A stretch of DNA of 64,000 nucleotides from Clostridia bacterium (GTDB taxonomy: Bacteria > Bacillota > Clostridia > Oscillospirales > CAG-272): NCBI GenBank assembly GCA_024405755.1, contig JAKSOD010000004.1, forward strand, positions 991-64,990, written 5' to 3'. The notes under the pieces are model-generated. The model did not search any database and was not told where the DNA came from. It worked only from the letters and a program-made list of their open reading frames with translations. The first letter of the stretch is position 1; each line of letters opens with the position of its first letter. Below are positions 15,440 through 29,932 of this stretch, one piece after another. The position numbers and the translations under genes are program-made.

Positions 15440-15757
15440 TTCCGCTGTGCAACTCCGTTCCGGGAAAGTCGAAAGAAACGTAAAAAACAGTTTCAAGTAT
15501 ACTTTACCATTAAAAATATAACTATAATTATATTATACCACCTTTTAAAGCGTTCGTCAAGCACACTTCGACAAATAAACCGTGAACTCAACAAGTATTT
15601 TTTTGTAAATCTGTGCTTTTTTGACGTTCGGATTCGAAATACAGTAAAGTTTTTTCAGAGACGGATAAAATTTATTTGACAATAAAGACACACGGTGATA
15701 TAATCATTATGTAGTAATGTATCTTTGTCGCGGAGCAGGGGAAAAGGAGTGGAAAAA

Positions 15758-25589: not shown

Positions 25590-26669
25590 ATGAGTGAAGT
25601 TATAATAAACAAGAAACCCGAGACCGACCTTTGTACGTCGGATTTCAACTACGAACTGCCCGAGGAACTTATTGCGCAGCATCCTGCGGAACCGAGGGAT
25701 TCCTCTCGTCTTATGGTCATTGACCGCAGGACCGGCGAACTTTCACATGAGCATTTTTATAATATAATTGACCACCTGAGACCTGAGGATACTTTGGTAA
25801 TAAACGATTCAAAGGTCATTCCCGCCCGTCTTTACGGTCATGCCCAGGGAAGACCGGATGCCGCTGTGGAATTGCTCCTCCTCCGGCAGCGCGGAAACGA
25901 TCTGTGGGAAACCCTTGTAAAACCCGGAAAACGCGCCCGTATCGGAATGAAAATGGTTTTCGGCGAGGGCAAAATGGTCGCCACGGTTACGGATATTGTG
26001 GAGGAGGGAAACCGCCTTGTGAGCCTTGAATATGACCGCAGCGCATACGCCAACGTTTATGATATGCTTCACGAACTCGGAATGATGCCTCTGCCGCCGT
26101 ATATTACGGAACGGCTTGAAGACGGCAGCCGCTATCAGACGGTGTATGCCCGTGAGGAAGGCTCTGCTGCGGCACCTACGGCGGGACTCCATTTTACGAA
26201 CGAACTTCTTGACAGAATACGCCAAAAAGGTGTTGCTGTCGTACCCGTGATGCTTCATGTAGGACTCGGAACTTTCCGACCTGTCAAGGAAGACAGAGTA
26301 GATGCTCACATTATGCACACTGAATATTTCAGCGTCAGCGAAGAAAGTGCACGGATCATCAATGAGAGGCGCGCAGCCGGCGGCAGGATCATCTGCGTAG
26401 GTACGACTTCCTGTCGGACTCTTGAAAGTGCTGCGGACGAGAACGGGATCGTTCACGCCATGAGTGCCGACACGGGAATTTTCATTTATCCGGGATACCG
26501 TTTCCGCGCGACTGACGCTCTTATTACAAACTTCCATCTGCCTCAGAGCACGCTTCTGATGCTTGTTTCTGCTCTGTATGACAGAGAACATATGCTGAAC
26601 ATATACAAAACCGCGGTTGAAATGAAGTACAGGTTCTTTTCCTTCGGCGATGCTATGCTCATCGAATAA
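25590..26669 (+). CDS. queA: S-adenosylmethionine:tRNA ribosyltransferase-isomerase
   Basis: [27 protein letters not shown]...PLPPYI...YQTVYA...[13 protein letters not shown]...[10 protein letters not shown] is a full-length QueA signature. Confidence 0.95.
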
Positions 26670-26767
26670 TTTTCCGTCATACTGCGTTGCTTCTCGACTC
26701 GGACGGCTCGACGTACACGTGTACGCCGTCGCCGCCGCTCGCTCGGTGCGCCTTGTCTGACGAAAAA
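26670..26767 (+). repeat. Palindromic core element (TTTTCCGTCATAC ... TCTGACGAAAAA) directly after the queA stop
   Basis: Its end motifs match the cores inside the elements at 37844-38023 and 47454-47797. The interior contains the hairpin cgacgtacac/gtgtacgccgtcg. Confidence 0.6.
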
Positions 26768-26960
26768 TTCTTCTGATGAGAAAATCGATGTTAAGCATCG
26801 GCAATCCAATGACTTCTTGTAAAATTTGAACAATTATTTATATTTCAACGTGTTGAATTTCGCCGTTTTGTATGAAACGTTTACCGACCGGTAATGCTTT
26901 TTTATTAGCAGAGGTAGTTGTTTTCTTTATAAGAAAACAATGTGATTTTTGTGTAATCTA

Positions 26961-26989
26961 TTGACAATATCACGATATCGTGATATAAT
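26961..26989 (+). promoter_or_regulatory. Consensus sigma-A promoter with an embedded perfect palindrome (putative operator)
   Basis: TTGACA lies at 26961-26966, followed by a 17-nt spacer and TATAAT at 26984-26989. The bases at 26967-26986 (ATATCACGATATCGTGATAT) form a perfect 20-bp palindrome. Confidence 0.75.
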
Positions 26990-27015
26990 AATCCGTAGAA
27001 AAGGAGGAAATGCCG

Positions 27016-27270
27016 ATGCCTGTTTTATCAAGATTTTACGGAATAATCATAAGGATGTATTTTTTGCAAAAAGAACATAATCCGCCGCATATTCATGCAA
27101 TCTATAATGAGGATATGGCGGCAATCAACTTTATTACGGGGGATGTGTTGGAAGGATATTTGCCGCCGAAAGCGTTAACGCTTGTCCGCGAGTGGATTTC
27201 AGTTCACAAAGATGAATTACAGGAAATTTGGGAGACGCAGAATTTCAAAAATATAGCACCTCTTGAATGA
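27016..27270 (+). CDS. DUF4160 domain protein
   Basis: MPVLSRFYGIIIRMYFLQKEHNPPHIHAIYNEDMAAINFITGDVLEGYLPPKALTLVREWISVHKDEL is the characteristic DUF4160 pattern. The start lies 8 nt after AGGAGG. Confidence 0.8.
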   Translation: MPVLSRFYGIIIRMYFLQKEHNPPHIHAIYNEDMAAINFITGDVLEGYLPPKALTLVREWISVHKDELQEIWETQNFKNIAPLE

Positions 27271-27287
27271 GATAAGGGGAAAATATT

Positions 27288-27728
27288 ATGTTCCATAAAA
27301 TTAAAAATATTGTACCGCTTTCCGACTTCAAATTGAGTGTACTTTTTGCGGAAGGTGTAACCAAAATATATAATGTTGCTCCATTATTTGATAAAATACC
27401 GGCTTTCCAACTTTTAAAGCAAAGTTCCGGGTTGTTTGCCGATGTATATGTTGATGTCGGTGGCCACGGAATCGTATGGAATGATGAACTTGATTTGTCC
27501 TGCGATGAACTTTGGGAAAACGGAAAAGAAGTAAATACTCCCTTTGACGGACTTATGTCTTTCGGCGATGCATCAGAGTTATGGGGATTGAGTGAGAGCA
27601 CGCTGCGAAAAGCAGTCGAATACGGTAAACTGAAAAACGGTGTTGATGTTTGTAAATTCGGAAAACAGTGGGTCGTGTCTGCAGAAGCCATGCAGAGGGA
27701 ATACGGTCAAAACGGGCGTAGAATATGA
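27288..27728 (+). CDS. DUF2442 domain protein with a C-terminal excisionase/MerR-like helix-turn-helix
   Basis: The N-terminal ~85 aa (IKNIVPLSDFKLSVLFAEGVTKIYNV...GHGIVWNDELDLSCDELWENG) are DUF2442-like. The C-terminal FGDASELWGLSESTLRKAVEYGKLKNGVDVCKFGKQWVVSAEAMQREY is HTH_17-like. Confidence 0.7.
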   Translation: MFHKIKNIVPLSDFKLSVLFAEGVTKIYNVAPLFDKIPAFQLLKQSSGLFADVYVDVGGHGIVWNDELDLSCDELWENGKEVNTPFDGLMSFGDASELWGLSESTLRKAVEYGKLKNGVDVCKFGKQWVVSAEAMQREYGQNGRRI

Positions 27729-27859
27729 GACTTCCAATTGGAATAATCTAAAAAACCGTAAGCGTCAGAGACGCCGTGTTCATTCGATATACTTCGCATA
27801 ACATTGCAAAAACGCGGCTCAACGATCCCACATACAGATTTTCAGAACGGAGAAAAGTC

Positions 27860-28921
27860 ATGAATTCTGAACTGATAATAAAAATATGGTCCTCAAAAGT
27901 GCCTGCCGAGGATATTTCCGTTACGAGGATCTCGGATCACGACTTTGCACTTACCGGAGTCGGCAAAGTGTCGTGCGGGGATATTCCTGCCGATATTCTT
28001 CTGACCGTTCCGGATATTGTTTCCGTAACGGAACTCCGGCTGTTTCCGTATGTTCCCGAAAATGATGAATACGCCCGCACATACGCTCTGAAATTTGCAA
28101 AAAAGCAGGCGGCGGTGCTCGGCGGTGCTGTAGAGGAAATACTTCCGGACGGCGGAAGAAAGGTTTATCGTGAGGGAGACGCTGTATTTTCTTATCCTGC
28201 ACTTAATGAGTATACACCGAAAATGCATCTTTCCGTGTGGTATGCCCCCGATGAGGGATTTGATGCCGCTGCCGGAAAAGTCGTTGATATTTTTGAAAAA
28301 TACCTTCCTTTTGCTCTTCCGTCTGCCTACGGATCATCGGAGCCGCTTGAAAATCAGTGCGGAAAAGACGGAGAGAATTTTGATAAGGAAAAGTTTATTG
28401 ATTTTTTGAAAGAAGAATCCGCCCCGATTTGGTATGCACGTTCTCCTCTGATCGGAGTATATATCCGCGATGCACACCGCAGTCATGCACAGCGGGAGGG
28501 ATTCCGGGCGAATTGTATTACAGTTGAATTCCCCGAAAAGATATATGACTATCGTGAATGGTCATACGCTTTGCGAAAAGTTCTTCGTGAACTGTGTTCC
28601 GCCTGCGGTGCCTTCTTCGGACAGATCGCAGCGGGAGACGGCGGCGTTGCTTCATGGTGGTGGCAGGGGATACCCGACGATCTCGGAGTCGCCTGTGTAA
28701 TTGGTGAACCGTATTTTTCACTGATCGCCGACTGCGAAGGAGAAAATGCCGACGTTATGTGCGGGGACGGAAAAAACGGGAAAACGGCGTACTTTGAAGA
28801 GCCGAACGGACCTCGGATAAGCTCCGATCTTCTTTCTTTGCGCCGTAAACGGTTTTTTAAAAAGAAAAGTCCGTATTTATCTCCCGACGATTTTACAAAG
28901 GCGGAAAAATTCCCTTTCTGA
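27860..28921 (+). CDS. Hypothetical protein (353 aa), no recognised domain
   Basis: The ATG at 27860 lies 8 nt after GGAG, and codon usage looks like the neighbouring genes. There is no signal peptide or TM segment and no motif I can name. Confidence 0.6.
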   Translation: MNSELIIKIWSSKVPAEDISVTRISDHDFALTGVGKVSCGDIPADILLTVPDIVSVTELRLFPYVPENDEYARTYALKFAKKQAAVLGGAVEEILPDGGRKVYREGDAVFSYPALNEYTPKMHLSVWYAPDEGFDAAAGKVVDIFEKYLPFALPSAYGSSEPLENQCGKDGENFDKEKFIDFLKEESAPIWYARSPLIGVYIRDAHRSHAQREGFRANCITVEFPEKIYDYREWSYALRKVLRELCSACGAFFGQIAAGDGGVASWWWQGIPDDLGVACVIGEPYFSLIADCEGENADVMCGDGKNGKTAYFEEPNGPRISSDLLSLRRKRFFKKKSPYLSPDDFTKAEKFPF

Positions 28922-28942
28922 TGCTGTTGACAAAAACAAGAA

Positions 28943-29932
28943 ATGAGTAATGATTTTATTGAAAAATTGATCAGTGAAAGAGTGTCCGGGGAGCAGCTTC
29001 TTCCGCTGATAGCCATAGCCGGCCCCACCGCATCGGGGAAAAGTGCCCTTGCGCTGAGGCTCGCCTGTGAACTCGGCGGCGAGATCGTCGGCTGTGACTC
29101 CATGCAGATCTACCGCAGAATGGATATAGGAACTGCAAAGCCGACAGCAGCCGAGAGAATGTCAGTTCCGCATCATATGATCGATTTTGCCGATCCCGAT
29201 GTGTTGTATTCATGCGCCGATTATGCATCTGACGCAGAGAAGTGTGTGGAGGACATTCATAAACGCGGAAAGATACCGGTGGTGTGCGGAGGTACGGGAT
29301 TGTACCTTGACAGTCTGCTTTTTGACCGTCCGTGGAGTGAAAGTGGAGGACAGAGCGAGATTCGTGAAAAACTGTCCGCAGAAGCGCAGAAAGAAAACGG
29401 AGCGCATATCCTATGGGAAAGACTTCTTGCGATCGATCCCGAAAGTGCGATGAAAACACATGAGAACAATGTGCGCAGAGTTATCCGCGCCCTTGAAATT
29501 TTCGAACTTACCGGCATTCCGAAGAGCGAACTTGACCGACGCGGAGGTGAGCCGAGATATGATCACCTTGTTTTTTCACTCTGCCGTCCCGACAGAGCAG
29601 AGCAGAATGCCCGTATCGAGTCACGTGTTGATGAAATGATCCGCGACGGGTTGCTTGAAGAGACATCCCGCCTCGATAAAGAAGGGGTATTTGCCGCCAA
29701 CGTCACTGCGTCACAGGCGATCGGATATAAGGAAATGCTTGGCTGCGTCAGAGGGGAATGTACGCTTGCCGAAGCGAGAGAATCCCTGATCATCGCAACA
29801 AGACAGTATGCCAAACGGCAACTGACATGGTTCGGAGCCAAGGACTATGTTCACCGTATCGATATTACTCCGGAATCTCCCGATCCATATCCGGCGATAA
29901 GGAAAGCCGTGAAAGAATACTTCGGATTTTAA
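28943..29932 (+). CDS. miaA: tRNA dimethylallyltransferase
   Basis: IAGPTASGKSALAL (P-loop), ...DSMQIYRRMDIGTAKP...HHMIDF...GGTGLY...AKRQLTW. Confidence 0.95.
   Translation: MSNDFIEKLISERVSGEQLLPLIAIAGPTASGKSALALRLACELGGEIVGCDSMQIYRRMDIGTAKPTAAERMSVPHHMIDFADPDVLYSCADYASDAEKCVEDIHKRGKIPVVCGGTGLYLDSLLFDRPWSESGGQSEIREKLSAEAQKENGAHILWERLLAIDPESAMKTHENNVRRVIRALEIFELTGIPKSELDRRGGEPRYDHLVFSLCRPDRAEQNARIESRVDEMIRDGLLEETSRLDKEGVFAANVTASQAIGYKEMLGCVRGECTLAEARESLIIATRQYAKRQLTWFGAKDYVHRIDITPESPDPYPAIRKAVKEYFGF

Follow-up and report, generated by a model that had tools for sequence, protein, structure and literature searches.

Within 64,000 nucleotides of a Clostridia bacterium genome (contig JAKSOD010000004.1 of assembly GCA_024405755.1; the whole stretch is called the window below), a small two-gene cassette occupies positions 26961–27728 between queA and miaA. 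We are fairly confident that this cassette is a type II toxin–antitoxin (TA) module of the DhiTA family that carries an antitoxin fused to an HTH_59 helix-turn-helix (HTH) domain, has an operator to match, and was inserted after queA. The DUF4160/DUF2442 family is already published as a TA system, as is DhiTA autoregulation. What is new here is an abundant, undescribed DhiTA sub-type with an HTH_59-fused antitoxin and a conserved operator inside its promoter.

A preliminary description of the window had reported an AT-rich insert with an 84-amino acid DUF4160 gene and a 146-amino acid DUF2442-HTH gene 17 nt apart, and sequence and Pfam confirm all of this. The sequence likewise confirms the TTGACA-17-TATAAT promoter it described, with a perfect 20-bp palindrome over the spacer and half of the -10. 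Its suspicion of a TA-type module is borne out by the domains, which are those of the DhiTA family (PMC8198452). Its remark that no mechanism had been established for the pair still holds for the toxin target, but not for DhiTA function, which is published (PMC8198452, PMC12724237).

The dhiT-like and dhiA-like genes

The first gene, dhiT-like, encodes an 84-amino acid protein (27016–27270, + strand) that matches Pfam DUF4160 (PF13711) over the entire profile (positions 1–65 of 65; 74.6 bits, gathering cut-off 23, E 7e-21) and the NCBIfam toxin_DhiT model (NF048015) over 79 of 84 profile positions. We place its start at ATG 27016, 7 nt behind the ribosome-binding site AGGAGG read in the sequence at 27003–27008 (+ strand). 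The automatic open reading frame (ORF) list begins at 27010 (86 amino acids), but homologues have 84 amino acids and begin with MPV. A word-seeded search returned 3728 toxin homologues and, among the matches listed, almost all are 84 amino acids long. Alignment of homologues reveals an invariant block, E20-H21-N22-P23-P24-H25-I26-H27, along with invariant R6, Y8, R13, Y15, D33, W60, and H64.

The AlphaFold2 (AF2) model of the toxin is confident (predicted local distance difference test, pLDDT, 92; predicted template modelling score, pTM, 0.83) and consists of five strands followed by two helices. Foldseek found no significant relative of the model (best PDB hit E 0.8 with template modelling scores, TM, ≤0.42; best BFVD hit E 0.17), which agrees with the published statement that DUF4160, the effector domain of Menshen NsnC proteins, has no structural homologue (PMC12065111). 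Searches of PDB sequences with both cassette proteins and both profiles gave nothing meaningful. Because a confident model has no relative among solved structures, the mechanism of the toxin is likely new, as others have argued already. Given the histidine-rich invariant motif and the replacement of nucleases by DUF4160 in Menshen, our best guess is that the toxin may be a nucleic-acid-directed enzyme.

The second gene, dhiA-like (27288–27728), starts 17 nt after the toxin gene on the same (+) strand, with no terminator in between, and encodes 146 amino acids. Pfam assigns residues 5–80 to DUF2442 (PF10387; 36.3 bits, gathering cut-off 23.9) and residues 87–142 to HTH_59 (36.8 bits, cut-off 27). 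The HTH had previously been called excisionase/MerR-type; an HTH is indeed present, but the label was imprecise, as the curated match is to HTH_59 and the one to HTH_17 is sub-threshold (19.6 bits, cut-off 27).

Antitoxin homologues numbered 4609 in a word-seeded search. The best 120 all combine PF10387 with PF20038 at 72–88% identity, and the few of them with a source name come from gut Clostridia metagenome-assembled genomes, labelled only 'DUF2442 domain-containing protein'. Clustering at 50% yielded 1201 antitoxin clusters (E ≤1e-3) that include full-length, N-domain-only, and HTH-only proteins, and the HTH half is nearly invariant in the family alignment. On Sarcina plasmid p1, a DUF4160 gene is paired with a stand-alone DUF2442 protein, to which the N-terminal domain of the window antitoxin is 44% identical. 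When viral contigs were scanned with the antitoxin as a single protein, nothing matched.

The DUF4160/DUF2442 pair corresponds to dhiTA of Dickeya dadantii 3937, validated in 2021, where the toxin gene comes first and both genes are co-transcribed (PMC8198452). In that system DhiT is a growth inhibitor in both Dickeya and E. coli and causes no filamentation, DhiA neutralises DhiT, and the pair together is harmless; promoter activity is lowered by about 50% by the antitoxin and by 70–99% by the complex (PMC8198452). The window cassette shares with dhiTA both Pfam domains, the unusual toxin-first order, the small bicistronic layout and, as we infer for the cassette from what was demonstrated for DhiTA, autoregulation. 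It differs in its gut Clostridia host, in the extra C-terminal HTH_59 of its antitoxin (Table 1 of PMC8198452 gives the Dickeya pair as DUF4160/DUF2442), and in the spacing of its genes, which overlap by 3 nt in Dickeya. It also has a defined candidate operator, whereas none has been mapped in Dickeya. Our literature search found no paper on HTH_59, PF20038, PF13711, or PF10387, and none on DhiTA that maps the operator, antitoxin-DNA contact, or toxin target.

A related pair on a Thermus plasmid (DUF4160, 87 amino acids; DUF2442, 92 amino acids) was reported in 2025 to raise plasmid persistence, and its second ORF alone cannot be deleted (PMC12724237). This Thermus thermophilus module resembles the window cassette in domain pair and gene order, and its intolerance of second-gene deletion fits a toxin followed by an antitoxin. 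It differs in being plasmid-borne with an antitoxin that lacks an HTH, whereas the window module is chromosomal with an HTH-fused antitoxin.

A palindrome inside the promoter and its tie to HTH_59

A promoter scan identified a sigma-70-type promoter at 26961–26989 (+ strand), with a -35 of TTGACA at 26961–26966, a 17-nt spacer, and a -10 of TATAAT at 26984–26989. All 12 of 12 consensus positions match, and a TG precedes the -10, as in extended -10 promoters. The spacer in its entirety and the TAT of the -10 are spanned by ATATCACGATATCGTGATAT, a perfect 20-bp palindrome (26967–26986, unstranded) with the core TCACG-N4-CGTGA. Nowhere else in the 64 kb is there a perfect palindrome whose arms reach 10 nt or more; 200 dinucleotide shuffles give an expectation of 0.055, so a chance origin is unlikely. 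No second copy within 3 mismatches was found in the window.

Perfect TTGACA-17-TATAAT promoters occur four times in the window, all ending in TGATATAAT. The three further ones lie at 15676(+), 59823(-), and 60299(-), compared with 0.01 expected by chance, and the last of these is just upstream of what looks like a tRNA gene.

Comparison with other loci carrying an HTH_59-fused antitoxin showed a DUF4160 gene 8–17 nt upstream of the antitoxin gene in 76 of 85. The palindromic motif was present in all 44 distinct upstream regions, as an exact ATCACG-N4-CGTGAT in 28 and with one or two base changes in the left half in the other 16 (TTCACG, ATCACT, and similar). In nearly all 44 it is flanked by a -35 resembling TTGACA and a -10 resembling TATAAT, with the consensus TTGACA-ATATCACG-RTAY-CGTGATATAAT. 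This promoter-operator block is the only non-coding sequence conserved across the 44 regions; before the -35 and after the -10, sequences are unrelated between contexts, and the promoter is kept in 28 aligned distinct loci.

With an alignment of the toxin as query, a toxin-anchored sample was drawn from viral contigs, 42 of which carry DUF4160 genes, blind to antitoxin type and with duplicates removed. Of 16 loci whose antitoxin has HTH_59, 15 carried the motif, against 0 of 17 with other antitoxins (Fisher p = 1.5e-8); the sixteenth HTH_59 locus is one base off, with CTGTGA for CGTGA. The other antitoxins were DUF2442 alone, duplicated DUF2442 (L186, L192; loci are cited by our own numbers), and DUF2442 with an Xre-type HTH (L197, L198, L202). 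Several of the loci with other antitoxins have different palindromes in the same spacer, e.g., L197 (TTGACA-ATAGGGGGAATATCCCCTAT-AAT), L198, L204, and L206. No such palindrome is present at the HTH-less pair of a Sarcina plasmid, whose proteins are 48% and 44% identical to those of the window.

Conserved at distinct loci and exclusively associated with HTH_59-type antitoxins, the palindrome very probably serves as operator for the second gene, the one with the HTH. The operator role put forward in the preliminary description thus gains strong comparative support, as a prediction from sequence. The different palindromes that occupy the -35/-10 spacer with other antitoxin types suggest that the DhiTA family may exchange its DNA-binding domain (none, HTH_59, or Xre-type) together with the matching operator.

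The palindrome might alternatively be a by-product of a strong promoter or a site for a host factor, with the HTH binding elsewhere or binding no DNA. The common ending of the four consensus promoters is in keeping with this, as it makes CGTGATAT, the right half, partly promoter sequence. However, promoter function leaves the left half ATATCACG unexplained, and this half is as strongly conserved as the right even though promoters need no such sequence. The palindrome is also absent from the other three consensus promoters of the window and from all 17 loci without HTH_59, several of which have TTGACA/TATAAT promoters. We therefore regard a by-product or host-factor site as very improbable.

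Several points do weigh against reading the cassette as a DhiTA-type module with its own operator. The extended -10 consensus of the host is matched by the palindrome's right half, so part of the conservation of the palindrome is promoter constraint. At 78.9 bits against an equivalog cut-off of 100 in NF048015, the toxin belongs to the DhiT family without being an equivalog of the Dickeya DhiT. For the antitoxin there is no matching NCBIfam model, and its AF2 model, from a 20-sequence alignment, has a pLDDT of 52, too poor for the HTH fold or an interface. Finally, the Thermus pair is harmless in E. coli (PMC12724237).

The queA-miaA slot and its repeats

Comparison of gene order identifies the cassette as an insert, with the queA terminator on one side and on the other the gene that precedes miaA. 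The arrangement dapA(-), queA, a variable segment, miaA, and a 582-amino acid gene is kept across 80 species-level relatives, among which the queA-miaA gap measures 0–2.7 kb. The closest relatives were identified via homologues of the gene for a 353-amino acid protein (P353). In L213 (QueA 91% identical), queA is followed by 181 nt, the P353 homologue, and miaA, and in L214–L216 (QueA 84–87%) only 4 nt separate queA from the P353 homologue; none of the four carries the cassette. Homology between the window and L213 continues past queA through the element that follows it, ends near 26758, and resumes near 27844.

Base composition also sets the insert apart. In 300-nt windows, GC content is 0.33–0.37 across 26750–27500 versus about 0.5 in the flanks, and by segment it is 0.398 in the cassette, 0.506 in queA, and 0.510 in miaA. 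The cassette had been proposed to be foreign at this position, and its absence from the closest relatives (QueA 84–91%) together with a GC content of 0.40 versus about 0.51 in neighbouring genes is consistent with that proposal; vertical conservation with host-like composition was not observed.

Presence or absence at the queA 3′ flank had been suggested as a check. While absent from L213–L216, the cassette recurs after queA in scattered distant lineages, namely L137 (QueA 80%), L023, L027, and L033 (71–72%), and L141, L142, L143, and L155 (57–67%). Its junctions differ between lineages, and in L155 the queA stop codon falls inside the -35. Cassette GC content is 0.38–0.52 across 52 loci, with flanks at 0.33–0.56 (r = 0.35). 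The variable slot corresponds to window positions 26670–27860 and was compared in L004, L009, L020, L031, L012, L039, L044, L046, L048, L028, and L032. A RelB(PF04221)-YafQ(PF15738) pair occupies it in L004, L009, and L020 and is also found in L031, and other relatives have VanZ, GNAT, or metallo-beta-lactamase genes in the slot, or nothing.

Contigs of the same species that extend far enough all carry the cassette at 100% protein identity, and no genome with an empty site was found among the exact-QueA contigs extending far enough. This bears on whether the module is an inactive remnant, for instance one with a mutationally attenuated toxin, kept only as a passenger. Decay is common among chromosomal TA modules, and the att-like repeat that flanks the cassette (described below) is degenerate and has lost its stop codon. 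Yet every same-species contig found keeps the cassette unchanged at the protein level, both ORFs are intact, of canonical length, and retain all family-invariant residues, and the promoter, operator, and ribosome-binding sites are perfect. An inactive remnant is, on balance, unlikely.

In two samples (ERR11637135, SRR17543908; L166 and L167 versus L001 and L003), assemblies break between queA and the cassette. Such breaks could reflect a cassette repeated across species in the sample, or strain-level presence and absence.

An intact cassette with promoter and operator also resides in the phage genome Dulem virus 33 (L164, PP511792.1). In that record an antisense ORF, XCD07605.1 (649–1056), is annotated over the unannotated 84-amino acid DUF4160 toxin gene (709–963).

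The selected role of the module could be anti-phage abortive infection or phage exclusion, with infection freeing the toxin. We consider such a role possible, though only tentatively, and it does not exclude the TA assignment. The Dulem virus 33 copy, with the same promoter and operator, and the DUF4160 genes on 42 viral contigs are consistent with it, as is the presence of DUF4160 in Menshen NsnC proteins, where it is an effector domain (PMC12065111). PADLOC (PADLOC-DB 2.0), on the other hand, gave no match to the toxin and only a marginal mad1 match to the HTH of the antitoxin (E 0.02), and there are no other defence genes nearby.

The left boundary of the insert is marked by host sequence. 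The gene queA (full-length Pfam Queuosine_synth) ends in GGCGATGCTATGCTCATCGAATAA (26646–26669, + strand), a 24-mer that served as probe and forms the left copy of a repeated terminus. Directly after it comes a GC-rich structured element (26675–26775, + strand), which aligns with L213 to about 26758 and is found at the same position in L213, L011, L012, L014, L017, L020, L039, and L042. Its closing stem, GCAAUAC.GCGUUG / GCGCCUUGUCUUGC, shows some compensatory changes; there is also a variable inner hairpin, then a U-tract, an architecture common to these eight other queA loci. The element is probably the queA terminator, belonging to the host and forming no part of the insert. We considered a new RNA and rejected it, a terminator being the simpler explanation given the closing stem and U-tract; Rfam returned no family at E up to 1 in 26000–29000.

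The AT-rich leader of the insert (26776–26960, + strand) has no counterpart in L213 or L214. It contains the 14-mer TTACCGACCGGTAA at 26881–26894 followed by a T-run. A perfect hairpin, TTGTTTTCTT-TAT-AAGAAAACAA, at 26918–26940 lies 20 nt upstream of the -35, is followed by TGTGATTTTTG, and may insulate the cassette from read-through. The palindromic 14-mer TTRCCRAYYGGYAA was found in 12 of 217 sequences (216 loci and the window), always at the queA slot. In the window, L141, L142, and L143 it precedes the operator by 77–91 nt, and in L020 and L031 it follows RelB-YafQ (positions: L141 2574, 2595; L142 857, 1669; L143 2574, 2595, 3437; L010 2158; L020 8709; L031 7745). Often paired into a long hairpin that a T-run follows, it may serve termination, recombination, or both.

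Using the last 24 nt of each locus's own queA as probe, we searched for att-like repeats in 3.5 kb of downstream sequence, with an upstream control. Copies with at most 7 mismatches were detected downstream in 13 of 84 loci (positions include L142 1717, L027 7198, L045 4193, L011 5233, L031 7780, L020 7212, L023 7200, and L141 3485), whereas the upstream control never gave fewer than 8. A shared right arm precedes these copies: CCAATCGGTAA, then (A/T)TCTTATAT, then 10–16 nt.

In the window, a degenerate right-arm motif, TTCCAATTGGAATAATCT (27735–27752, + strand), lies 6 nt after the dhiA stop and aligns with CCAATCGGTAAAATCTTATAT, which is present at cassette right ends in L031, L141, L142, and L143. 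The right copy of the terminus, a pseudo-queA 3′ end AGAGACGCCGTGTTCATTCGATAT (27767–27790, + strand), follows 39 nt after the antitoxin stop; of its 24 positions, 6 differ from the queA end of L214 and 7 from that of L213, and the stop codon is lost. The 64 kb contain no further site of this kind on either strand besides the real queA end. It emerged only when queA ends of relatives were used as probes, and a generic repeat finder identified no convincing long direct or inverted repeats. No recombinase is encoded in the cassette or downstream of queA in 22 loci lacking miaA, where there were only housekeeping genes. Viral contigs scanned with the right-arm motif yielded one chance match, inside a ribonucleotide reductase gene, and no parent element.

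A degenerate copy of the queA 3′ end just after the cassette suggests site-specific integration at that end, with reduction or accretion having followed. The same att-like copies could be read as signs that the second gene encodes an excisionase or transcription factor of phage type and the first its non-toxic partner, both left over from a degraded prophage or integrative element. The antitoxin does match phrog_2655 'excisionase' (PHROGs) over its whole two-domain length (E 1.7e-34), and its HTH part alone resembles small Clostridioides difficile phage proteins, one of them annotated as an excisionase in RefSeq. But the 'excisionase' label is an unverified annotation, and an excisionase is a small stand-alone HTH protein that is encoded beside an integrase and acts at att sites, whereas this protein has 146 amino acids, two domains, and a sub-threshold HTH_17 match, with no integrase in or near the cassette or in the 22 other loci. 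Moreover, the palindrome is situated in the pair's own promoter, away from the element ends, and the partner comes from an experimentally toxic family (PMC8198452). We give little credence to an excisionase, and prefer a TA module that was inserted at queA.

How such a module might come to lie at a housekeeping gene can be illustrated by the cis-mobilisable elements at fda in Streptococcus thermophilus, islets that arise from site-specific 3′-end integration followed by deletion or tandem accretion. The queA slot resembles these in having direct repeats of the target-gene 3′ end, different cargo in related genomes, and no internal recombinase. It differs in that its units are only 0.1–2 kb, no queA-targeting integrase or parent was found, and the window repeat is degenerate. 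It is conceivable, though rather doubtful, that the queA 3′ flank in these gut Clostridia is a dedicated landing site for very small recombinase-free cassettes (DhiTA, RelB-YafQ, and others) that a recombinase moves in trans, each with a TTACCAATCGGTAA-type hairpin, a TCTTATAT box, and a newly formed copy of the queA terminus at its borders. If true, a housekeeping gene would be home to a cassette system whose logic is comparable to that of integron cassettes or cis-mobilisable elements.

The insert is followed by the 353-amino acid protein gene (27860–28921), which lies between queA and miaA in every relative examined. Its product has no Pfam, NCBIfam, PADLOC, or PHROG match, and only 38 homologues were found.

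Proposed regulation and significance

For the window module we infer that a single strong promoter would transcribe both cassette genes. Free 84-amino acid toxin would inhibit growth, and the N-terminal DUF2442 domain of the antitoxin would bind and neutralise it. The C-terminal HTH_59, acting as a dimer, would bind the two half-sites of ATATCACG-RTAY-CGTGATAT. Since the palindrome takes up the whole -35/-10 spacer and reaches into the extended -10, antitoxin bound there would block RNA polymerase, and the operon would repress itself. The toxin would probably serve as co-repressor, as in Dickeya.

Antitoxins with a separate DNA-binding domain that repress from a palindrome overlapping the promoter are known from HigBA, HipBA, and MqsRA. 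As in those systems, a DNA-binding domain and a predicted toxin-binding domain are joined in one antitoxin, and the putative operator lies within the -35/-10 region. Unlike in those systems, the toxin gene comes first and the toxin-binding part would be N-terminal with the HTH at the C terminus; the folds are unrelated.

Overall, the interest of the finding is modest, because the family and its autoregulation were already published and the cassette adds nothing decisive on how the toxin acts. Nonetheless, the HTH_59 variant gives the DhiTA family a named DNA-binding domain and a precisely defined predicted operator in the promoter spacer. The suggested exchange of domain and operator makes both DhiTA regulation and the insulation of modules from one another directly testable. 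There is also a gain for annotation: the toxin gene is unannotated in at least one phage record, and thousands of gut-metagenome proteins labelled only 'DUF2442/DUF4160 domain-containing' can be named DhiTA-like.

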